Origin: Escherichia phage GaoY1-9D
DNA: 50,368 nt
Reading direction: 5' to 3' (one strand)
Sequence record: PP971806.1
Notes under the pieces: generated by a model
What the model was told of the DNA's origin: nothing
Databases searched by the model: none
What the model saw: only the letters and a program-made list of their open reading frames with translations
Shown: in pieces, positions 6,917-47,464 of the stretch
How the letters are laid out: the number at the start of each line of letters is the position of its first letter
Numbering within the stretch: the stretch's first letter is position 1
Program-made: the position numbers and the translations under genes

Positions 6917-8176
6917 ATGAGTAAAAAAAGCGTAAAGACCGACTCTTACAACAAGACGTTTAAGGGTGAAGGTACGGCAGGCGGCGCGCTTGCATCGCTG
7001 TATGATCAGATGTATGTGACGCAGTTTTACATTGATGATCCTATGGCTAAGAAAATTGTCGATGTTATTCCAGAGGAAATGGTTTTCCCTGGATTCGGCC
7101 TGGACGGGGTGAAGGATGAGAAGGCGTTCAAATCTTTGTGGGATGGCATGAAGCTTAACAAGCAGATTGTCGAGGCGTTCTCATGGGAGCGGCTTTATGG
7201 TGGTTCCGCTATCGTTGCCGTCGTCCGTGACAACCGACTCCTGACATCACCAATCAAGGAAGGTGCGCAGCTTGAATCAATCCGCGTCTACGAGAAAGAG
7301 CAGATCCGCATCAAGGACCGCGAGAAGAACGCGCGCAACCCTCGCTATGGTATGCCGAAGATTTACACCATTAACCCTGGCGGCAGCGTACCGGAATACG
7401 ACGTACACTACACGCGAATCTATGTTAACGGCGGCGAGCGCGTACCTAACTCACTTCGAGCGCAGAATAACGATTGGGGCGCATCGGTGCTGAGTAAGGG
7501 CTTGATTGACGCCATCCTGGACTACAACTACTGTGAAGAACTGGCTACTCAGCTATTGCGCCGTAAGCAGCAAGGCGTATGGAAAGTAAAAGGACTGGCT
7601 GATTTGTGCGACGATGACGAAGGGCGTTACGCGGCTCGACTGCGATTAGCTCAGGTTGATGACAATAGCGGCGTAGGCCGGACGATTGGCATTGATGCCA
7701 CCGACGAAGAATACGACGTCCTTAACTCAGACATTGGCGGCGTTGATGCTTTCCTGGATAAGAAGATGGACCGCATCGTCAACTACTCGCAGATTCATGA
7801 GATCATCCTCAAGAATAAGAACGTAGGCGGCGTGTCAGCGAGCCAGAACACAGCGCTTGAGACTTTCTACAAGATGATTGATCGCAAGCGTAACGAGTAT
7901 TACAGGCCGCTTCTGGAATGGCTTGTTCCGATGATTATTCAGGATGAGGAGTGGTCAATCCGCTTTGAACCGCTATCAATGCCAAGCGAGAAAGAGCAGT
8001 CCGAGACGTTGAAGAATAACGTTGATTCAATCTCAAAGCTGGTGGCGGATCAGGTCATTGACCGTGACGAGGCACGTGATACACTTGAGGCGATCTCGGA
8101 CTTTATCAAGATTCAAGGCCCAGCGCCGGAGCTTGAAATCGAACCAACTGACCCACAGGTGAGCAACGAGGAATAA
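6917..8176 (+). CDS. portal protein
   Basis: 419 aa ORF between terminase and head morphogenesis genes; acidic C-terminus. Confidence 0.75.
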   Translation: MSKKSVKTDSYNKTFKGEGTAGGALASLYDQMYVTQFYIDDPMAKKIVDVIPEEMVFPGFGLDGVKDEKAFKSLWDGMKLNKQIVEAFSWERLYGGSAIVAVVRDNRLLTSPIKEGAQLESIRVYEKEQIRIKDREKNARNPRYGMPKIYTINPGGSVPEYDVHYTRIYVNGGERVPNSLRAQNNDWGASVLSKGLIDAILDYNYCEELATQLLRRKQQGVWKVKGLADLCDDDEGRYAARLRLAQVDDNSGVGRTIGIDATDEEYDVLNSDIGGVDAFLDKKMDRIVNYSQIHEIILKNKNVGGVSASQNTALETFYKMIDRKRNEYYRPLLEWLVPMIIQDEEWSIRFEPLSMPSEKEQSETLKNNVDSISKLVADQVIDRDEARDTLEAISDFIKIQGPAPELEIEPTDPQVSNEE

Positions 8177-24222: not shown

Positions 24223-25185
24223 ATACATGTTTGGGGTAAAAGGAAGTGCCATTGATATGTTTGTATCAAATGGAAATTGAGCACCTGATTGCGTTGAGTA
24301 GTTACCAATTACAGTACCTGGAACTGCTCTAACATTGCCACCTGACATACATATTCCCTTATACCTAAGATTGTTGTAACCTCCTGTCACTCTTGTTGTT
24401 GCTCCACATCTAAGTATAGGAAAGAACCCACCCACATATTGCCAGTTGTTATTGATCTGAATGAAACCACCAAGGACAAATGGCCTCCTCACACTTGAGA
24501 ACACTATCTGCCCGGCGGGATTGCTCATTGTAATACCCGGGCCTGGCGGTGGAGGTGTATTGTTAAATATAACAAGATTAACATATGTGCTTGCGGCAAC
24601 GTCATCAGTTCCTCCGTATGTTATGTCTCTACACCATATTGTTGACCCATCAGACTCCAATGATACGTTTTGGTTATCCCACATGCCAAAAGGTATCCCA
24701 GAAACCGGAAGACTTGCCGCGCCGTTAACTTGCAACCCCCCAACGTACGCTGCGCTCATTAACCTGGCATTGTTTGGTATTGCTGTAAAATTAGTTGAGT
24801 TCTCTACAAGCAATCCCTGATTTCCAGCTGCGGCTGGCAGTATCTCAAAGCAACTACCGTAGAATCTTAATAGTCTACCATTCGAACCGTTGAAGTTTCC
24901 GATCCCAATGCGCCCCACAGAATCGCTAACCTTTGAGAAACTATTGAGGAAGTAGACCTCTGGAACAACATCAAAATCGTCAACATAAACGGCCTGGGAT
25001 GGTAGGCAAAATGCAGTTGATCCTGGGGTCATTGTTAACCCAAAATCCCACGATGAGTTTGAAGATGGGAAACCATCAGCCTGAATTGCTCCAGATACGG
25101 CAGGCGCTCTCAATCCAGCGGTAATCTCCATCGCTGGCCTTCCGTCATTTAGGTCAATCAATATACCTTGAGGCATTATTTCCAC
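24220..25185 (-). CDS. receptor-binding protein (putative)
   Basis: 321 aa on opposite strand just downstream of J, co-oriented with a lipoprotein gene. Confidence 0.45.
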
Positions 25186-25421
25186 TCCTTAGACCCATGG
25201 TCAGCCACTGAACCACCGTAACCTCCACCAGCCTTGCTCTCAATACCAGCGTAGCGCACATCAACTTCACCAGCTGGTACAATCACGCCACCTTTCCACT
25301 TAGCCACGCACACGCCGTTTGCTTGCGTTGCACACCACCCTTCAGGGCGAGGGCCAGAAGAACAACCAACTGTCATGATCACTGCTGCTGCGATGATTGC
25401 CGATTTGATTAAGTTAGTCAT
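25176..25421 (-). CDS. lipoprotein, candidate superinfection-exclusion protein (Llp/Cor-like)
   Basis: signal peptide with lipobox MTVGC; directly upstream of putative RBP. Confidence 0.55.
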
Positions 25422-25505
25422 TTTGTTTTCCTTAGTAAGTATTTTTCGTTTCGATGAAGTAACTATACATGCAACTATCGTCGGAGTCTTTAACTATTCG
25501 TGCTA
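25422..25505 (-). promoter_or_regulatory. intergenic cassette copy (minus orientation)
   Basis: reverse complement reads TAGCACGAATAGTTAAA ... GTATAGTTA ... CATCGAAACGAAAAAT. Confidence 0.5.
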
Positions 25506-25938
25506 TTGTATACACGTAACCAATGTAACTCGATGTATACAATCCCATCCGCGAGAAATGATATACGCACTGTTACGCCAATTTACGCAATGGTTACATT
25601 AAAATATCTATATATATCAACCTTTTACTCTTATTATTATTATTATATATATTACTGTGTATATCATGTAACTACTTATATAGAGTGTTCCGCTTATAAA
25701 TTTCTAATATGTACATTTATACAGTATTTAATCACAAGCATACCAATGCACCATCCGCCAGAAGCGATATACACGATATACACGCTATTTACATCTAGCT
25801 ATAGCTGGGCATGATAGCCATTTTATGTAACTAGCGCCAATGTATACACATGATTACAGATACATACACGTAACCACTTGACTAATGCAACCAGTCGCGT
25901 ATAGTTAGCCACATCAACAACGAACGAGGATTAAAGAG
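25506..25938. repeat. AT-rich non-coding region with GTATACAC-type iterons and (TTA)n/(TA)n tract
   Basis: repeated TGTATACAC and GATATACAC; ACACGTAACCA twice; about 100 bp related to 46005..46100. Confidence 0.6.
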
Positions 25939-26979
25939 ATGACTAAGCCACTGTTTCAATATTTCACTTCAGAAGAAATGAGCAACGATTTCTATCACAG
26001 CAAAGATGAATGGACTGCTGAGTATGTCTCTGGTTCATCGTTGAGCAAGATTCACAGCTCATGCCCTGCGGCGTGGAAGTTTGAAATGAACTCTACGACT
26101 AAAGCTCTTGTTTTCGGCACTCAGTCACACACAAACTTTGAGAGCAAGACGCTGTTTGAACGTCAGTATCGCCGAGCACCGAAAGAAAGCGAGATTAAGA
26201 ACGTAATCACAAGCCAGGCAGCATTGGCAACGAAATTAAAATCATTTGGCCTGACTGGTACAAGCGGAAAGCAATATCCAGAACTGATCAAAATGATGGT
26301 TGATTGTGGCGAAGAACTCAACGTGATGTGGCTGATTGATATGATCGCACAGTGTCAGGCATGGGCCGATGGCGTGGAACTGGTTAAGGCGGAAGACTAC
26401 GATGCTTGCGTAAGTATGCGTCAGGTTCTTGAAATGATTCCTGAGCATAATGCTTGCATGAACAGTGAGACTGCATTCCGTGAGTATTCTTTATTCGGCG
26501 TGATTTGCGGTGTAAAAGTCAAGGTTCGTCTTGACCACGTTGACATCATTAAAGATCCAGAAGCAATACGCCGCATGGGTTACGATCCTGAGGTTCACCC
26601 TGAAATTGTCGTCATCACTGATTACAAAACGACAATGATCGCTAACCCGACAGAGTTCCCGCGCCTGGCTTTCAACCTTGGCTATTATCTCAAGATGGCA
26701 TTGCAGCGTGACCTGTTCGTCAAGTGCTTTGAAGAAACGCGTCCAGTTGTTGTGCGCTTGCTGGCCCAGGAGAAGAAAGAGCCTTACTTGCCTATGGCGT
26801 ACCGGATGAGCAGCGATCAGCTTAAGATTGGTCGCGCTCAGTATATGAGTGTTATTCACACGTTCTCAATGTGCGAGGCGAATGATGTGTGGCCTTCATA
26901 CAGCAACGGCGAACCTGAGATTGAGCTTGAAACTCCTGATTGGATTAAAAAGCAGTTCAAGCACATTCTGGAAGCGTAG
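25939..26979 (+). CDS. exonuclease of PD-(D/E)xK type (recombination exonuclease, putative)
   Basis: LDHVD ... VVITDYKTT motif arrangement; upstream of annealing protein and SSB. Confidence 0.5.
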   Translation: MTKPLFQYFTSEEMSNDFYHSKDEWTAEYVSGSSLSKIHSSCPAAWKFEMNSTTKALVFGTQSHTNFESKTLFERQYRRAPKESEIKNVITSQAALATKLKSFGLTGTSGKQYPELIKMMVDCGEELNVMWLIDMIAQCQAWADGVELVKAEDYDACVSMRQVLEMIPEHNACMNSETAFREYSLFGVICGVKVKVRLDHVDIIKDPEAIRRMGYDPEVHPEIVVITDYKTTMIANPTEFPRLAFNLGYYLKMALQRDLFVKCFEETRPVVVRLLAQEKKEPYLPMAYRMSSDQLKIGRAQYMSVIHTFSMCEANDVWPSYSNGEPEIELETPDWIKKQFKHILEA

Positions 26980-30381: not shown

Positions 30382-30405
30382 AATTTCAACTCCTATTTTT
30401 ATTGA

Positions 30406-30475: not shown

Positions 30476-31420
30476 TTATGAGTACTCATCTATCAGATCC
30501 TGTGGTGTATATAGCTTTCGCTCAAGGCCCATTTTGAAGTTTCCGCCGTTCGGCACTACAACTTTTAAATCACGTTCATCTGCCATGTAAAGTGTGCGCA
30601 AATCATCAGCCGGACACGCTACGCGCAATTCACGTTCGCCACGATACCGATAAGCAACAATCTCAAGATTCTCAGGGGAGAAAGTAACCCATACTTCCTG
30701 GCTGGTTGCCATCTTCACGCGGTAGCCATCAATAAGGTCGCTTGTCATATATATAGCTGCATCATCCTCGCCACTCCCCAGTTTAACAACTGAGCCGCGA
30801 GAATAATCACGCGCAAGGAAAGTGTATTCGCCATTATCATAAGCAAACATGACGTTACACATATCCTCATCAATTCCGTCATGGTGGACCATGTAGCACG
30901 GTAGTGCGTGTATTAGCTCCTCAGTGCCATTCTGACGCACTTTTACGCCAACATCATATGAATCTTCGGTTAGGCACTCATACACGCTTAAATCGGTGCT
31001 CTCGCGCTTTTCTGTGCGCTCCATTACAGATACGCACGACTCATGATCCGCCATCTTGCCAAGGCCTTTCTCCGGTACGCGAGACGCCCTGCGGTAAGCC
31101 TTAGCTTTGTAATCCTGCGGAACTTTGCCAAGGAATCGACCGAGAATATTAATCACTTCACTGTAAGGCTCACCAGTCAGCTTCATCATCCAGCCAACAC
31201 CGGAGTCGTTACCGCACTGGTTACAGATTGCTCCACCGTCACCAGGGGAGTTAATGTTATCAGTCCAGCGGAAGCGATCCGATCCTCCACAATTAGGGCA
31301 CATCTGGTGCTTCTTATTGAACACGATGGACTGCAAACCACAAATTGACTGTAGCGCCTCCTTCCATAATCCCTTCATGTAAGGAAGCACCTCTTCTTTC
31401 TGGTAATTCATTTCGCTCAC
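30476..31420 (-). CDS. DNA primase (zinc-ribbon containing)
   Basis: CPNCGGSDRF ... CNQCG zinc-binding motif near N-terminus; replication module. Confidence 0.6.
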   Translation of the reverse strand: MSEMNYQKEEVLPYMKGLWKEALQSICGLQSIVFNKKHQMCPNCGGSDRFRWTDNINSPGDGGAICNQCGNDSGVGWMMKLTGEPYSEVINILGRFLGKVPQDYKAKAYRRASRVPEKGLGKMADHESCVSVMERTEKRESTDLSVYECLTEDSYDVGVKVRQNGTEELIHALPCYMVHHDGIDEDMCNVMFAYDNGEYTFLARDYSRGSVVKLGSGEDDAAIYMTSDLIDGYRVKMATSQEVWVTFSPENLEIVAYRYRGERELRVACPADDLRTLYMADERDLKVVVPNGGNFKMGLERKLYTPQDLIDEYS

Positions 31421-31472: not shown

Positions 31473-31946
31473 TCATTCTTTAGCTTTTCGTGCTGCTTCG
31501 TTTGCCGCTTTAATTTTTCGCCATGATCGACACTCTGGTTTAGTGGCTAGTTCAGCCTCAGTGACGACGCGCAGCATGTGACGCTTTTTGCAACGCAGCG
31601 TCAGCGGCTTACCGTTCCCATCGAATTGCAGATCAGGTCGGCAGAATGTAGCGCGGAATCCTTCGCCAGTTCGCTTATATCGGTTGTGCGCCAGTTGAGC
31701 GCCGCGAGCCGACATCATTCCTCGTTTAAACCATTCCTCAACGGCCTGGCGACTAACCTTCAGTTGTTTTGCGATATTGGCCTTCGTTCCGTAGAAGTCG
31801 AGAACCATTTCCAGTCGCGCCCGAAGCCCGGCCTTTACTTCATCTTTTAAAACGTAGTAACCTGAGGGTCGTTTCCGTTGCTTTTTGTCTTCAGTTCGGA
31901 CTGTTCCGTTGTTGCCGTTAATGGTTCGCTTGTCGACTGCATTCAT
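31473..31946 (-). CDS. HTH DNA-binding protein (putative transcriptional regulator)
   Basis: helix-turn-helix-like segment TKANIAKQLKVSRQAVEEWFKRG; basic protein. Confidence 0.5.
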   Translation of the reverse strand: MNAVDKRTINGNNGTVRTEDKKQRKRPSGYYVLKDEVKAGLRARLEMVLDFYGTKANIAKQLKVSRQAVEEWFKRGMMSARGAQLAHNRYKRTGEGFRATFCRPDLQFDGNGKPLTLRCKKRHMLRVVTEAELATKPECRSWRKIKAANEAARKAKE

Positions 31947-31959
31947 CTCATCACCTCAA

Positions 31960-32038
31960 TAGCACTTTTTGTTAAACATTGGTTTCGAAGGTTGTTATTA
32001 TAACGTCAATCGAACGAACATGAAAGGCATTTAATACT
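31960..32038 (+). promoter_or_regulatory. intergenic cassette copy in divergent region
   Basis: TAGCACTTTTTGTTAAA; TGTTATTATAAC; AATCGAACGAAC; RBS GAAAGG. Confidence 0.6.
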
Positions 32039-34141
32039 ATGGCTATGCGCATTAAATCCATTAAAAAACAGATAGAGGAACTCGGTCCTCAGAAAATTAA
32101 AGAGATTCAGGATAAATTCACGTTCGGTGACATGGTTCCTTATGAATATCAATGCGTAATGTATGATGAGATCGGCAAGCGCATTGCTCGCTACAGACAT
32201 CCATTCATTGTCAAGGCGTCGGTGTCGGCAGGTAAAACAATCGGCTTTGCCATGATCGCATCGCGCGTCAAAGAGATGGGCTTGTCGATGATGATTCTTG
32301 CACGCCAGGGCGATATAGTCGCTCAGGATAGTGAGGAGATCTCAAACTTCGGCGTTCCTAACTCAGTTTACTGTGCTGGCCTGAACACAAAATCAGCTTA
32401 CTTCCCTATCGTTGTAGGCTCGGAAGGTTCGGTTGCGAACGGTCTGTTTAAGGCGCTCGGTGACTTTACACCAATGGTGCTTGGGATTGATGAATGTCAC
32501 CAGGTGGATTGGGAAGACCTTGCCGCCGCCATCGACAACGAAGAGACGATTGAAATGATGCTCACTGAAAAGGATGAGCGTGTATTCGTTGACTACCCGA
32601 AAAACAGCGAGGGCTATGTCAATGGATACCTTGATGGCGTAGAGGTTGGCGTTCAGGTGATGGATAAGCAATTGCTAATCAGCAGGAAGACTGGCGAGCC
32701 TGTTCTCGGCACCAAGCGAAGCCAGTACACTATCATAATCACTGAGTTGATGCGCCGCTGCAAAGAGAAGAACGGGAAGGAATTGCGCATCTTCGGCATG
32801 ACTGGTTCTGAATTCAGAGGGACAACTCCGATTGTTGTCGATAACCCTAAGTTACCTGGGTTCTGGCGTGAGCAGGTTACTAACATCGATACCAATTACC
32901 TTATTGAGTTCGGCTCCGTTGTTCCAACCATATTCGGAAGTGTCGGTGATGCTGGATACGATCTGGATGAGTTCAAGGCATCAGGCCAGGACGGGACGGC
33001 AGATTTTAGCCAGAAAGAAATGAAGGCGATGGAAAAGAAAATCCATGACAACGCCAGCATGACAAAGCGAATTATGGGGATGGTCGTAGAGGAAGCGAAA
33101 AAGCGAAATGGCGTACTGATTACGTGCGCAGGCCAGCGCCATTGCAAAGAGGCGTCGAGCTATCTGCCACCTGACGCTACCTATGAGATCATCACGGAGA
33201 AGACGAACACCAAAAAACGACAAGCGATACTGGAGGCGGCGAACCGTGGCGAGATCAAATACATATTCCAGGTGGTAGCGCTAACCACTGGCGTTAACGT
33301 TCCATTTTGGGATTTTTCGGTAATCCTGCGCAAGATCGGATCGCTTACACTGTTAATACAGTTACTTGGTCGCGGTATGCGATTGCTTAAGCCATGGCAA
33401 AAAGCCATGGGAATGGTTAAGGAAGATCACCTGGTATGGGATTTTGCTGGCACGATGGATGAGCTTGGTCAGCTTTACTTCGATCCGATTCTTGAAGAGG
33501 CTCAGTACCAGCGCCGCTTTGATGGTAAGAAAGAACCGAAAAAATGTGAACTGTGCGGAACCGAGAACAGTTTTTACGCCCGCCGCTGCATTCACAGAGA
33601 CGAAAACGGCAATCGGTGCGAGTATTTCTGGAAGTCTCGCATCTGCGAAGACCAGATTGATGATCGCACTGGAGAGGTTATCGTTAAGGGATGTGGCGCT
33701 AAGAATGACGTAGTGGCGAGAATATGCCGTTGCTGTGATGTTAGCCTGAAAGATCCCAATGATAATCTGACTGGTAAGGCTTACACCAAAAACGACTGGT
33801 GCACAGTTAACAGCTTTGAAGTAACACTGACACGTAACCAGACTGGTGTCCTTTATCGGTACGACCTGACAGACTCAGTGGGAGTTAACTTCATCGCGTA
33901 TGAGAAGTTTTTCCCTCAATCAACGGCGCAGGTATGTCACACGATATGGAAACAAAAAGGGGTATTGCCTCACGTGCATGACAGTAAGATCGCAAAATTA
34001 ATGGCGGCTTACAGAAGTGCCAAAATGATTTTAAACAACGCCCACCACATAGCACATCCTGTGCGGGTAACTCACCGCAAGAATGCAAAAGGTGAGGATA
34101 TTATCTCACGTAAGGATTTCGGATTGGACGGTAACTTATGA
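32039..34141 (+). CDS. SF2 DNA helicase (DEAD/DEAH-box type)
   Basis: Walker A SVSAGKT; motif II IDECH; 700 aa; C-terminal Cys-rich zinc-finger-like region. Confidence 0.8.
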   Translation: MAMRIKSIKKQIEELGPQKIKEIQDKFTFGDMVPYEYQCVMYDEIGKRIARYRHPFIVKASVSAGKTIGFAMIASRVKEMGLSMMILARQGDIVAQDSEEISNFGVPNSVYCAGLNTKSAYFPIVVGSEGSVANGLFKALGDFTPMVLGIDECHQVDWEDLAAAIDNEETIEMMLTEKDERVFVDYPKNSEGYVNGYLDGVEVGVQVMDKQLLISRKTGEPVLGTKRSQYTIIITELMRRCKEKNGKELRIFGMTGSEFRGTTPIVVDNPKLPGFWREQVTNIDTNYLIEFGSVVPTIFGSVGDAGYDLDEFKASGQDGTADFSQKEMKAMEKKIHDNASMTKRIMGMVVEEAKKRNGVLITCAGQRHCKEASSYLPPDATYEIITEKTNTKKRQAILEAANRGEIKYIFQVVALTTGVNVPFWDFSVILRKIGSLTLLIQLLGRGMRLLKPWQKAMGMVKEDHLVWDFAGTMDELGQLYFDPILEEAQYQRRFDGKKEPKKCELCGTENSFYARRCIHRDENGNRCEYFWKSRICEDQIDDRTGEVIVKGCGAKNDVVARICRCCDVSLKDPNDNLTGKAYTKNDWCTVNSFEVTLTRNQTGVLYRYDLTDSVGVNFIAYEKFFPQSTAQVCHTIWKQKGVLPHVHDSKIAKLMAAYRSAKMILNNAHHIAHPVRVTHRKNAKGEDIISRKDFGLDGNL

Positions 34142-40341: not shown

Positions 40342-41925
40342 TTACCCCAGCAGTCGCGGATTAATGTAAATTTTATCACCAATCAGGCAAGTGTAGTTTT
40401 TCTCATCCAGCATAGGGATCAGGTGATCTTTGATGCGAGTCATTACACCACTTTGCCCTTCAAAGGGTTTAACCTTACGAGCCGCTTCATATAGGGATCG
40501 GACACCTACAACGCCCTTCCCGTTCTTACCTTGCTTGATCAGAATATCGATCAGCTTATTCATCTCCGCATGGTCGCCAGCATGACCAGCAGCGTTTGCA
40601 GATGACAGATAAGTCTTACTCAGTTCCTGGAACATAATTACCGCTTCCTGCATTGTGTCAAGCTCAATCTCTCTAGACTTCTGCGGACTCCCGCCATTGG
40701 GATTAAACCAGTTACGCACAGTGTGAAGAACAGCAGCGATCCTGATAGCCTGCTTATCGAACTTACCCAGCGCTCCGCGAAGCATTGTGTGTGAATACTT
40801 CCCGCCGTCCGCAAGGTGAGGCTCCATATCCTGACGAGCACGGTTGAGATATTTCATCGCCGACGTGCTCACTGTTAGGTTGACTTCGTGTTCGCTCATG
40901 ATCTCATGGACCAGACGGAAGTAGTCCGCCTTGAGTCCGCCATCAATCGGCTCATATGTTGATTCGCCTTTCTCATCTACGAACACACGCTCACCAAGGA
41001 ATGACTTCTCACGCACAAGCAAGAAACGTTCTGACACACCGATACCACGCGCACCAGCATTCATGATCGCGTTGATTGTTTCATCCTGTGCAATTACAGA
41101 TATGCAGCCCATCGCAATGAAGCTCATGTTATTGTCTGCGTTCGCACGGGCGATAGACACGTTACCAGCATCCCATGCTTTCAGCACAAGCTCGCTGTTC
41201 GTTTTCTTTGAGCCGTCACCATAGGTCATGCCTAACAGTGAGTTCACGCTCGTTGCTTCATCCGAGATCACTGCAAAGTTGCCCTGGCGGTTGTTGATTC
41301 GCGCAAGACCTTCCGGCGTGGTGTCGGATACGGGGAAAACGATGTCACAGAGTCGTTCAAGTTTTTCTTCAAGTTCCTCTTTCTCATCAAACAGAGCCGC
41401 CATATCAGATGGTGATTTCTCCTGCTTCATCTCCTTGGATAGAGCGGAGAGCTTAGCCATAATCTTCTTGCGGTCACGCTTTCGGATCTCGTTGAGTCGC
41501 TCAGTCTCTGCGATCATTGGGGCCAGGGAAAGTGAGTTAATGGCTGATTTACCCGTCGATGGCGGCTGACTGGTTACGACGTACAGCGCGGTCGGCTGTT
41601 GTGTTCCGTGATACTCAACCGTAAATCGGCCCAGCATGGCGGCTGATATGCATCCGAGGAAATGCATGTAAGCGGACGACTCGGGGAACTGAACTGAACG
41701 AGCGGCATTGCTTGACAGCTTACCAACGACATCACAATCGTTACCAAGTGAGATAACCGGATATTTGTCACCGCCTGAGTCAATTTCTGTTGGGGCTTTC
41801 CAGAATGATTGGCTCTGCCTGTATCCGTTCGCATTGATGGCAACGCGCAAAGGTGGCAGGTTATCGGCAGCGGCTACAGCCATGACCTGATCGATTGACA
41901 ATTTATCTTCGTTGAAATCAAACAT
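40342..41925 (-). CDS. P-loop NTPase of unknown role (possible replication initiator or helicase-type ATPase)
   Basis: Walker A QPPSTGKSA; Walker B-like AVISDE; N- and C-terminal modules shared with 46901..47464. Confidence 0.55.
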   Translation of the reverse strand: MFDFNEDKLSIDQVMAVAAADNLPPLRVAINANGYRQSQSFWKAPTEIDSGGDKYPVISLGNDCDVVGKLSSNAARSVQFPESSAYMHFLGCISAAMLGRFTVEYHGTQQPTALYVVTSQPPSTGKSAINSLSLAPMIAETERLNEIRKRDRKKIMAKLSALSKEMKQEKSPSDMAALFDEKEELEEKLERLCDIVFPVSDTTPEGLARINNRQGNFAVISDEATSVNSLLGMTYGDGSKKTNSELVLKAWDAGNVSIARANADNNMSFIAMGCISVIAQDETINAIMNAGARGIGVSERFLLVREKSFLGERVFVDEKGESTYEPIDGGLKADYFRLVHEIMSEHEVNLTVSTSAMKYLNRARQDMEPHLADGGKYSHTMLRGALGKFDKQAIRIAAVLHTVRNWFNPNGGSPQKSREIELDTMQEAVIMFQELSKTYLSSANAAGHAGDHAEMNKLIDILIKQGKNGKGVVGVRSLYEAARKVKPFEGQSGVMTRIKDHLIPMLDEKNYTCLIGDKIYINPRLLG

Positions 41926-44859: not shown

Positions 44860-45666
44860 TTATATGTCGCTGAAAACTTCACAGCTTTCACTGCAAGATC
44901 CGGTGTCGAATGATTTGGCCCCTCTAACCCTTGAGGCTATCTCATCTCTCGACTGTGGAAACATCTGTATAATGTCACCGATTGAGCGCCTTCCTCTGTA
45001 CATGTCAGATGATGATTCCTTTTTATTGTGCTCACTAATTGTGTCAATGAATAGCTTTGCAAGTTCCGGCTCATCTTTACACGCAAGCGCAATCTTAAGC
45101 TCTGACTTCTTGATGCAGAAAACGCAGTTACCAAGATGCTCATCAATTTCAAGGTCAAATGGCATGTCATGCCAGAAGTCGATAATGTCCTGTTTTTCGA
45201 AATCAGATATGTCAGCAAGGTAACTGAACCCATCGACGGGTTTTAGTCTCTTTGGCTCATCGGCACGAATACCAATCCATCTCTGATAATTACCCTTACC
45301 ATACTTCTCCTCGCAGTACTTCTCGAATGGCTTAGTCTTCATCCTGTTCGTACAGAATGGCCCGCCTTGGTATGGATTTCCGTACTTCCTTAGCATTCTA
45401 ATCCACCCAGTCAGATCATGGTGAATGTCATCGACGCTGACAACTTCGAAAGATGGAGCCCCGCGGAACTTATCGCTGGGCAAACATCTCAGGCAGGTTA
45501 TCGGCCTTGAAAGCATTGATGAGACTTTACGGATAAACTCATATGTCTTCGGATGCTCTGCTCCAGTGTCCATATAAATCACCTCCGCGTCAGGATGAAT
45601 CTTGAGTACCTCAAGTGTCATGTATGCCGAAGTCCTGCCGCCGCTAAAACTAATTACCTGATTCAT
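44860..45666 (-). CDS. PAPS reductase-family PP-loop ATPase
   Basis: PP-loop SFSGGRTSAYM at N-terminus; ATG 45666 with RBS AGGAG. Confidence 0.7.
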   Translation of the reverse strand: MNQVISFSGGRTSAYMTLEVLKIHPDAEVIYMDTGAEHPKTYEFIRKVSSMLSRPITCLRCLPSDKFRGAPSFEVVSVDDIHHDLTGWIRMLRKYGNPYQGGPFCTNRMKTKPFEKYCEEKYGKGNYQRWIGIRADEPKRLKPVDGFSYLADISDFEKQDIIDFWHDMPFDLEIDEHLGNCVFCIKKSELKIALACKDEPELAKLFIDTISEHNKKESSSDMYRGRRSIGDIIQMFPQSRDEIASRVRGAKSFDTGSCSESCEVFSDI

Positions 45667-45744
45667 TTCAACTCCTATTTGTGCGCTAAATAACAACCAG
45701 ATGATAGCAACTAACCCATGAATGGTCATTAGCAAAAAGTGCTA
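45667..45744 (-). promoter_or_regulatory. cassette-like element upstream of PAPS reductase gene
   Basis: minus strand TAGCACTTTTTGCTAAT at 45728-45744. Confidence 0.45.
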
Positions 45745-46373
45745 TTCGTTCGATTTATGGATTGTTGCAGCTATTGCAATGATTCACATGACTATTGCAC
45801 AGATAGCAATATTGCATCTATTGCAATGATGTTTTCTATTGTTGCGAATTGAGCAATGATTCATTGATGGGGGGAATGATGGGGTGATCAAGGATCACCT
45901 GATCGACTGGTAGGATTTTCCCGCCACACGCTTCTAGCGTATACGCGTTATTTATGTTATGCCATGTAGACACACCAGCACTCCGTAGGAATCATGTACG
46001 CATATCACGCTTAATTACGCCATGGTTACATTAAAATATCCTTATATAATAACCATTTATCTATATTATTATTATTAATATATATATATGTAGATAATGT
46101 AGATAGTGGATATGTGATATTGCGATAGTTTTCTATGATATTTTCCTACACCTGTAGGAATATGACGACATTGTAGGAATAAAAGGGCATGTAGGGGCCC
46201 ATTTGCTAAAAATCCTTATCTACAAACTATACGCAGACTTTACATTGAGCTATATCTGGGGCGATTGGTGGAAATATGTAACTAATCAGAAAATTTGCAC
46301 CGATAACACTTGATAACACGTAGATGTGTGATACTATGGAATCATCTTAGCGAAGACCAACCAATCAGGAGTA
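45745..46373. repeat. AT-rich non-coding region with TATTGCAATGAT repeats, GATC-rich palindrome, GTATAC and GTAGGAAT motifs and (TTA)n/(TA)n tract
   Basis: TATTGCAATGAT at about 45772 and 45819; GGTGATCAAGGATCACCTGATC; TGTAGGAAT three times; core related to 25560..25665. Confidence 0.6.
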
Positions 46374-46901
46374 ATGAGTATGTCAGAGCACAAAGAAGCA
46401 GTAAGCCTCGGTGACGTTATCCGCTACATGGCGGAGCAAGCGCTCAAGTCCGAGAACCGCAGCTACCACGTCCCAATCCATCTAATAGCTCGCCAGGTTT
46501 ACGGCCTCACATCTAGTGATATAGGAGGCATAAGTCGTGAGGATCTGGATGTAGGTGGCAAGTACAGTATGGCAAAGCTGAAGGCGTCATATGTCGCCAA
46601 TACGGTAGCCAGGATGCCAGAGATACAGGCGGCAAACGTTCGTGCAAAACTTTCAATTAAGGATGGTGATTTCGGTGATGACGTCGAGGTTCGGTGTGCT
46701 TATCTGTCTTTGGTTGATGGCGCAATCCAGACAGGAAAGCGAGTGAAGGCAAACTGCCAGATTGCAGAGAAGGCTGTGAGCGACTTTAAGGTCAAAATAC
46801 TCAAGCTGATGCCATCCGTGACTAACTTTGAGGGCGATGAGATTACAGGAGCCATCAAGGCAATCAAAATGTACCAGGAAATGATTAGGGAGACGAAATA
46901 A
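46374..46901 (+). CDS. hypothetical protein
   Basis: ATG 46374 with RBS AGGAG; first gene after AT-rich region. Confidence 0.5.
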   Translation: MSMSEHKEAVSLGDVIRYMAEQALKSENRSYHVPIHLIARQVYGLTSSDIGGISREDLDVGGKYSMAKLKASYVANTVARMPEIQAANVRAKLSIKDGDFGDDVEVRCAYLSLVDGAIQTGKRVKANCQIAEKAVSDFKVKILKLMPSVTNFEGDEITGAIKAIKMYQEMIRETK

Positions 46902-47464
46902 TGTGGATGTTTGATTTTAACGAAGAGAAGCTGACAGATGAGCAGATTATGAAGATTGCTACGGAAGATGGGATTCCACCACTACGAGTTGCAATCAATG
47001 CTAACGGATACCGACAGTCACAAAAGTACTGGTGCGAATTAGAAGTTATGCGTCGCGCAAACCTAAATCGTGAACAATGCGTCGTGGTTGAAAAGATCTG
47101 GAAGCAAGCGATAAATGGAAAAGGCGTTGTGGGAGTTCGCTCAACATATGAGGCGATCAGAAAGGTCCAGCCGTTCGTCGAGCGTAATGGAGTAATGAAT
47201 AACCTGATTGACAATATCCTACCATCACTACAGGACGCGGGAATCATTTGCCTTATTGGTGACAAGATATATGCACACCCATACCTGGTGGGCATGTATG
47301 GGAGAGACATCCACAAGTGGTGCGACTCATGGAGATCGGTTGAGCGCAAATCTCATAGCAAATTGCAGGCAAGCTCAGACATGATTCATGGCTATGATGC
47401 CGATGATGTCAGAAAGGCTGTCGAGTTTTATCGGAAAGCTAAATCACTCCTGAACGGTGAATAG
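46901..47464 (+). CDS. hypothetical protein, truncated paralog of the 40342..41925 P-loop protein
   Basis: shares MFDFNE-KL ... PPLRVAINANGYRQSQ and GKGVVGVRS-YEA-RKV-PF ... CLIGDKIY with the 527-aa protein. Confidence 0.55.
   Translation: MWMFDFNEEKLTDEQIMKIATEDGIPPLRVAINANGYRQSQKYWCELEVMRRANLNREQCVVVEKIWKQAINGKGVVGVRSTYEAIRKVQPFVERNGVMNNLIDNILPSLQDAGIICLIGDKIYAHPYLVGMYGRDIHKWCDSWRSVERKSHSKLQASSDMIHGYDADDVRKAVEFYRKAKSLLNGE

Follow-up and report, generated by a model that had tools for sequence, protein, structure and literature searches.

In the genome of Escherichia phage GaoY1-9D, a T1-like siphophage (Drexlerviridae, genus Nouzillyvirus), a divergent gap of 517 bp at positions 25422-25938 (hereafter region A) separates two outward-pointing genes, and this gap is the best available candidate for a replication origin of the T1 family. 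A second divergent gap at 45736-46373 (region B) contains a paralogous core. To judge from the arrangement of repeats in the 50,368-nucleotide stretch that was analyzed (the window), the origin-type element would occupy the central ~370 bp of region A, above all 25545-25680, with its paralogue at 45990-46106. We propose, with a confidence that falls somewhat short of an even chance, that the cores of A and B function as paired replication origins of the iteron/AT-rich type, at which an MCM-like winged-helix helicase acts, because their anatomy matches that of the origins used by the Rep helicases of SaPI elements. What is observed comprises the anatomy itself, the statistical enrichment and the conservation of its repeats, the relation of A and B as paralogues, and the folds of two proteins. 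The original prediction for this gap had suggested a replication origin, a recombination hotspot or a divergent regulatory hub; this interpretation is partly supported here, and phased and opposed repeats, the least stable duplex, a paralogous copy and an MCM-like helicase appear to fit the first option best.

The central module of region A consists, in this order, of a CCATCCGC box, four forward pentamers, a 60-bp tract of 89% A+T and two pentamers in the opposite orientation. The box in front of the main array (CCATCCGCGAGAAATG, 25545-25560, plus strand) is kept in relatives and is recognizable in T1 as CCTCCATCCGACCGC. It is followed by the main left array, a2 (25561-25599, plus strand), with TACGC, TACGC, TACGC and TACAT at 25564, 25574, 25584 and 25595; the steps are 10, 10 and 11 bp, and this is the sole run of four phased copies in the window. 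The AT-rich core at 25594-25654 (89% A+T) is the proposed unwinding element, has a column conservation of 98-99% across 15 phages and contains (TTA)4(TA)4, and the (TTA)n(TA)n tract described in the original prediction (TCTTATTATTATTATTATATATATTAC) is indeed present at 25629-25655. To the right of the tract, the pair CTGTGTATATCATGTAACTAC (25655-25675) bears the reverse pentamers TGTAT at 25657 and TGTAA at 25666, inverted with respect to array a2. The last forward pentamer and the first reverse one are 62 bp apart.

The repeats are highly enriched. Of the eight TATACAC copies in the window, five lie in region A (0.08 expected); the 16 copies of TATAC(A/G)C include 7 in region A and 3 in region B, and the eight copies of ATGTAAC include 4 in region A and 2 in region B. 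The iterons had been described as (T/G)ATA(T)ACAC, with ATACACGTAACCA present twice; such copies are present and enriched, and ATACACGTAACCA is found at 25510 and 25864, but the repeat unit is better defined as a TAC(G/A)N pentamer recurring at steps of 9-11 bp. By this definition there are 25 pentamers in the 517 bp of region A versus 5.0 expected. Runs of at least three phased pentamers number six in the window, five in region A and one in region B, versus 0.5 in shuffled sequence. No phased pentamer array was found elsewhere in the genome, including the divergent promoter region of the predicted regulator gene (31946-32039).

It is also evident that the core of region A has a second copy. 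About 115 bp of region A align to region B with a mean column identity of 79%, including the near-perfect blocks GGTTACATTAAAATATC and TATTATTATTATTA. The paralogous core of region B (45990-46106) bears TACGC, CACGC, TACGC and TACAT, an AT tract at 46029-46089 and the pair TGTAGATAA / TGTAGATAG. A second paralogous block, 25777-25835 versus 46228-46285, reads ATAC(A/G)C..TTTACAT..GAGCTATAGCTGG..ATGTAACTA and includes the palindrome AGCTATAGCT. The similarity to a region near 46 kb had thus been noticed correctly in the original prediction, which gave it about 100 bp; its extent was understated and the second block was missed. Depending on the phage, the core variants CTATATATATCAACC and CCTTATATAAYAACC occupy locus A or locus B. 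Because these variants swap loci between phages, the two cores appear to be equivalent, which suggests that they are functionally interchangeable.

The two cores also stand out in duplex stability. The least stable 60-mer of the genome lies in the core of region B (z = 5.55) and the second in the core of region A (z = 5.2), with the third-ranked 60-mer at z = 3.6. T1 shows the same pattern: its two least stable 60-mers occupy the A and B positions (z = 5.5 and 5.8). The region-B equivalent of a Klebsiella Webervirus is likewise an extreme of instability (z = 5.6), with inverted CTTACC/GGTAAG on its flanks.

The iterons are conserved in related phages, a point on which the original prediction depended: 135 phage records contain region A with its iterons kept, and 128 contain region B, in Nouzillyvirus, Braunvirinae (Rtp) and Rogunavirinae. 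The closest record to 25422-25938, Escherichia phage vB-EcoS-XT34, is 97% identical across the gap. Several phages keep the gap alone, their neighboring genes being replaced, with a Rha gene, methylases or small open reading frames (ORFs) inserted. In an alignment of 18 phages, positions 25602-25681 are 98-99% conserved and the flanks vary. Among the Escherichia phages available, the pentamer core hardly varies. We compared the layout of eleven A- or B-type loci from this phage, other Escherichia/Shigella phages (eight loci) and T1, whose region B shows the layout as well. Three or four forward pentamers at steps of 9-11 bp are present in ten of the eleven loci (the exception is region A of T1), and across these loci the pentamers are kept while the spacers between them are variable. 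The distance from the last forward to the first inverted pentamer is 60-62 bp in seven of the eleven, despite the microsatellite within the tract. The T1 sequence at A and B is alignable just over low-complexity matches and has diverged beyond BLAST recognition; the flanks of its unstable 60-mers nevertheless bear TTACGCC twice (region B) and phased TGTAACAG / TGTATATCG / TGTAACAG to the right of the tract (region A). When the core was compared by BLAST with 72,556 plasmids and 5,426 E. coli genomes, a search that would reveal satellites or replicons reusing it, no match was obtained. Scanning 185,579 bacterial and archaeal genomes for the exact pattern gave one match, NZ_VSMK01000220.1 (46,669 bp, labelled Nitratidesulfovibrio liaohensis), which is probably a contaminating T1-like coliphage in the assembly, because of its 46.7-kb size and the core motif. 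A 17-mer scan of viral contigs returned mostly chance matches in unrelated large contigs.

Two proteins of the phage are candidates for binding the pentamers. The DUF3987 helicase (527 aa; 40342-41925, minus strand) has an MCM-like AAA+ core and a C-terminal winged helix, and judging from its fold it is a candidate origin-binding, self-loading helicase. DUF3987 proteins have been proposed as replicative SF6 helicases (PMC4889955). A conserved motor-less paralogue of 187 aa (46901-47464, plus strand), whose gene is the second one rightward of region B, shares 69% identity with the helicase over the N-terminal 42 aa and 45% over the C-terminal winged helix, and lacks the AAA+ motor. It has 259 homologues, mostly on contigs of T1-like size, and may regulate or compete with the binding of the helicase at the origin. 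Sequence searches of both proteins against the PDB gave nothing significant, and only the fold comparison was informative. A distant phage (Logan contig ERR13868529_8668, 78 kb) encodes a DUF3987 helicase of 34% identity in an operon with a ResIII helicase, a DUF3799 exonuclease, AAA_24 and SSB; directly upstream of this operon, a 620-bp divergent gap (7060-7680) resembles an origin, its AT tracts being bordered by many GGGGG/CCCCC repeats. This distant phage lends the proposal contextual support.

In SaPI Rep, the C-terminal winged helix recognizes penta- or hexanucleotide iterons that are opposed across an AT-rich region, and the helicase loads itself (PMC9371898). The present element resembles such an origin in its multiple short iterons (5-6 nt in SaPI; 25 pentamers here versus 5.0 expected), in having at least two opposed iterons to either side of its AT-rich segment (four forward and two reverse), and in the encoding of an MCM-like helicase with a C-terminal winged helix on the same element. 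It differs from SaPI Rep and SCCmec Cch of the Staphylococcus islands in that there are two copies per genome, each between divergent promoters, that the arrays are asymmetric (4 + 2, plus the outer arrays), and that a motor-less winged-helix paralogue is also encoded.

These likenesses lead to a possible mechanism. A winged-helix protein, either the C-terminal domain of the DUF3987 helicase or the motor-less 187-aa paralogue or both, would bind the TAC(G/A)N pentamers on a single face of the DNA. Since the pentamers follow one another at one helical turn to the left of the AT tract and are inverted to its right, two complexes could assemble face to face across a tract of fixed length (~61 bp), which is the site of the genome that should be easiest to melt. 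On the twin-domain model of transcription-driven supercoiling, outward transcription from the two edge promoters would add negative supercoiling and help the tract to open. The helicase would then load itself, and synthesis would be primed by a separately encoded primase (30476-31420), which has a zinc ribbon of the P4-alpha / T7-gp4 type (PF08273). The identity of the pentamer-binding protein, the melting of the tract and the start of replication at the core are what we infer from the sequence.

Other types of origin were considered and rejected. A DnaA-dependent oriC-type origin would call for clustered DnaA boxes and GATC sites, but TTATNCACA is absent from A and B (its two copies in the window are elsewhere), TATACAC resembles this box at just 7-8 of 9 positions, and region A has no GATC. 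A lambda-type origin comprises about four iterons of 18-19 bp within the initiator gene, whereas region A is non-coding and has 5-bp cores at 10-bp steps. Phage lambda does share iterons beside an AT-rich region and activation by nearby transcription (proposed here); its four ~19-bp iterons, however, lie inside gene O and it uses host DnaB. Lambda-like iterons were also sought in the helicase gene of the T1-like phage TLS and none were found (PMC11447400). GC skew tracks gene orientation in the window and is uninformative on origins.

Two other systems with paired sites offer partial parallels. Satellite phage P4 has two cis sites, ori and crr, bound by its alpha protein, a single polypeptide that combines primase, SF3 helicase and origin-binding domain. 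As in P4, two cis sites several kilobases apart share common short repeats here, and the primase zinc ribbon is of the P4-alpha type; the primase and the SF6-like helicase of the present phage are, however, separate proteins. In Bacillus phage SPP1, oriL and oriR are served by the origin binder G38P and a DnaB-type helicase with its loader. SPP1 likewise has two origins per genome with repeated boxes beside an AT-rich region, but its box sequences and proteins are unrelated to those here.

The genes that flank region A do not depend on its center for their promoters. The promoter unit of the lipoprotein operon (25445-25506, minus strand), conserved in the 18-phage alignment, comprises a diverged copy of a 21-nt direct repeat (DR) (ATAGCACGAATAGTTAAAG, 25488-25506, minus strand), a -10 hexamer TATAGT at 25462-25467 (20 nt beyond the DR copy) and a leader box CATCGAAACGAA at 25445-25456. 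The exonuclease gene on the other side is served by a sigma-70 promoter, TTGACT-16-TATAGT (25878-25905, plus strand), which with 10 of 12 consensus matches is the best site in region A; the promoter, leader and ribosome-binding site (25878-25938) are conserved within Nouzillyvirus. Region B has the same build, with a DR unit at its left edge and TTGATA-16-TACTAT at its right. Sigma-70 promoters with -35 and -10 hexamers 16-18 bp apart that serve the flanking genes are thus found at the edges only, and the suggestion of a divergent regulatory hub holds there (25445-25506 and 25878-25905) and not in the center. From this layout the central ~370 bp must be dispensable as a basic promoter of either neighbor, and because the promoters of the flanking genes occupy the outer edges, it needs another function.

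Several points weigh against the proposal of paired origins. SaPI origins lie directly downstream of rep and abut it, whereas the helicase gene (40342-41925) is adjacent to neither core, at 14.4 kb from region A and 3.8 kb from region B (cores at ~25.6 and 46.05 kb). The AT core is 98-99% identical across genera; this exceeds what unwinding calls for and indicates further sequence-specific contacts, such as those of promoters or IHF. The core does have weak promoter-like hexamers on both strands (TTTACT-18-TATATT on the plus strand; GTTACA on the minus strand followed by TATATA after 17 nt or TATAAT after 19), and other annotators have marked promoters in it (EC3a, AHP24). A duplication is also what one would expect if two control regions were regulated in similar ways. 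Given that T1-like phages encode RecE/Erf, a large share of their replication may rely on recombination. Finally, winged-helix domains are common, and structural matches of this kind do not establish sequence-specific binding to the pentamers.

The main alternative is that A and B are transcriptional control hubs, in which the pentamers are operators for a phage regulator, such as the Cro-like protein (31473-31946), or for a host factor and the AT core contains overlapping divergent early promoters; we consider this possible but doubtful. Both regions are divergent gaps with edge promoters, promoter-like hexamers exist on both core strands, promoters were annotated there in EC3a and AHP24, the exact conservation of the core would suit contacts with both a protein and RNA polymerase, and a helix-turn-helix regulator of 157 aa is predicted in the window (phrog_2856, E = 5.6e-84; weak P22_Cro match). 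However, the core promoters match the consensus at just 9 of 12 positions, and the seven found, versus 3.4 ± 2.1 in shuffles, were judged not above the controls. Better promoters are closer to both flanking genes, and the pentamer arrays are missing from every other promoter region, that of the regulator itself (31946-32039) included. The candidate -10 hexamer downstream of array a3 and of the second paralogous block is not kept among relatives. A promoter, moreover, does not require a genome-wide extreme of instability or a fixed length of 60-62 bp. By-eye comparison with consensus sequences gave no convincing matches to LexA, CRP, TyrR or PurR sites.

It is highly improbable that the shared module is a packaging (pac) site or a site for nucleoid proteins (IHF, H-NS). 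A TTGCA array and a cluster of three GATC sites are found in region B, in which the T1 reference and other records begin or end, and an IHF consensus match (TATCAACCTTTTA, 25614-25626) lies inside the AT-rich core of region A; but region A shares neither this array nor the cluster, and IHF-like matches are frequent in AT-rich DNA and the region B core of this phage has none. Headful packaging of T1 starts from a single pac site, as opposed to the two copies of the module. Highly improbable too, in our view, is that the region is mainly a recombination junction, a linker at which the RecE/Erf system of the phage, or that of the host, swaps gene modules, kept similar by frequent exchange and having no sequence-specific function. 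Breakpoints near 25511 and 25858 are common to many phages (Braunvirinae homology stops inside array a4, near 25858), genes for Rha, Dcm or other methylases and small ORFs are inserted at the borders, and core variants are shuffled between A and B; the idea of a recombination hotspot therefore holds to the extent that breakpoints and gene insertions of relatives cluster at the core borders. Such a junction leaves unexplained why the pentamers are helically phased and inverted, why the tract has a fixed length and why T1 retains the design despite its divergence beyond BLAST recognition, and junction behavior would fit any conserved cis element. The nearness to recombination genes, also stressed in the original prediction, is real but probably incidental, as the second copy adjoins unrelated genes. 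The least credible explanation, and an extremely improbable one, is a hidden small protein or a non-coding RNA. The longest ORF inside region A (25500-25814, 104 aa) was rejected as a gene: variable alignment columns have no codon-phase bias (37/42/36), and relatives have frameshifts and one to seven stops in that frame. Several GenBank records annotate hypothetical-protein ORFs in the gap (RobRod40 CDS0029, OzMSK_041, ETEP102_47/48), which on these grounds are probably false gene calls. An Rfam scan of the whole window found no family at gathering thresholds, and no intrinsic terminator was found in region A. RNAalifold on 25655-25858 from nine phages found no compensatory base-pair changes (covariation term -0.19, paired columns invariant), its sole structure being an invariant long-range inverted repeat. 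The gap is thus non-coding, as had been claimed.

Apart from the central module, region A contains further arrays at 25505-25541, 25766-25794 and 25840-25877. The outer array a1 (ATTGTATACA...TGTATACAAT, 25505-25541) has four reverse-oriented pentamers at steps of 8-10 bp, a perfect 10-bp inverted repeat around CGTAACCAATGTAACTCGA and a column conservation of 90-96%. A smaller AT-rich stretch (25693-25733, 83% A+T) ranks third among the genome's least stable 40-mers (z = 3.9). The second repeat unit (25751-25835, plus strand), paralogous to 46221-46285 in region B, starts with a repeat of the CCATCCGC box at 25751-25766 (22 nt, 86% identical), followed by array a3 (two copies of GATATACAC and TTTACAT, 25766-25794, plus strand; 25762-25781 is 94% conserved), the 10-bp palindrome AGCTATAGCT at 25797-25806 and ATGTAACTA at 25825-25833. 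Array a4 (TGTATACACA...ATACATACACGTAACCAC, 25840-25877, plus strand), with at least three phased pentamers, abuts the exonuclease promoter.

The neighboring genes begin at the very borders of region A. On the left, the ATG of the lipoprotein gene (25176-25421, minus strand; PF24052) borders the gap, and the next gene on this minus-strand side encodes a DUF6453 protein; this is not a demonstrated receptor-binding protein, as the neighbor had been called. On the right, the ATG of the PDDEXK/RecE-like exonuclease gene (25939-26979, plus strand) borders the gap, followed downstream on the same strand by genes for the Erf recombinase and an SSB-like protein.

Region B has features of its own. The tandem 9-mers to the right of its AT tract (46086-46106) vary between phages and change jointly within each: TGTAGATAA/TGTAGATAG in the present phage, TGTATATAA/TGTATATAG in Msk, two copies of TGTATATCT in IME542 and two of TGTATACCG in Sd1. 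By sequence comparison, the repeat pair evolves in concert. TTGCA-type repeats (ATTGCAATGAT and similar; 45755-45865) form a highly conserved array that region B alone has, and three GATC sites lie within 20 bp at 45886-45904. The T1 reference record, which has a 2.8-kb terminal repeat feature, starts within the equivalent TTGCA array, and several GenBank records begin or end there. This makes the array a candidate for the pac site, which Dam methylation may influence.

The 21-nt direct repeat was described in the TLS paper as an intergenic repeat of unknown function and posed as an open question (PMC11447400). We scored a repeat as TLS-type when aaATAGCACnnnTTGnTAAAA lies upstream of a gene and is oriented with its transcription. 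The copy in region A has one mismatch in TTG, lies upstream of the lipoprotein gene and points with it; another copy is at the left edge of region B. The repeat covers just the leftmost ~60 bp of region A, and its motif is distinct from the TAC(G/A)N arrays. Copies of ATAGCACnnnTTGnTAAA are at 711, 2066, 2695, 31959, 35041, 36355, 47461, 48352, 49017 and 50064 on the plus strand and at 25506, 43157, 44453, 44858 and 45745 on the minus strand, with an odd copy at 30405 on the plus strand. The layout of DR, fixed -10 hexamer and leader is found in 15 of the 16 DR units in the window: a -10-like hexamer is 37-39 nt from the DR start in 15 of the copies (exactly 38 in 12), the CATCGAAACGAA leader often follows, and a strong hairpin (z <= -2.7) surrounds or abuts the -10 hexamer in nine of the 16. 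Because the distance to the hexamer is fixed, the DRs belong to promoter units, and by its placement the DR is an upstream promoter element, ~19 nt upstream of the -10 hexamer. Its TTGnTA is 22 nt from the hexamer and is thus too far for a -35 role; the arrangement suggests that DR promoters depend on an activator or on sigma remodelling. Part of the question raised for TLS would thereby be explained, the repeats being parts of promoter units. The first gene to the left of region B (44860-45735, minus strand) resembles PAPS reductase (phrog_33262, E = 2e-91). Because the TTG listed as its start codon overlaps with the DR promoter unit, the real one must be further downstream.

The element would add the T1-like phage family, in which the origin is unmapped, to the known type of iteron/AT-rich origin. 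Literature searches for a mapped origin or for transcription start sites in the T1 family gave none, and the recent genome papers on the T1-like phages SU57 and TLS (PMC11447400) state that they could identify no origin. A more far-reaching model, which we regard as speculative and rather unlikely as it stands, is that T1-like phages initiate at two paralogous origins by means of MCM-like helicases, self-loaded in opposition on the inverted pentamer arrays across the fixed 61-bp AT tract, with the conserved motor-less winged helix acting as a licensing or competing factor. T1 is one of the original seven T phages, and if the model is true, this classical phage would be a bacterial model for MCM-type origin recognition and melting. 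Two precise and conserved candidate sites of ~120 bp each, together with candidate binders and a layout with a precedent in staphylococcal islands, make the question resolvable by routine experiments. Phages of the T1 type often contaminate fermentations and also go into therapeutic cocktails, and knowledge of their origin and initiator would aid in engineering or blocking them.

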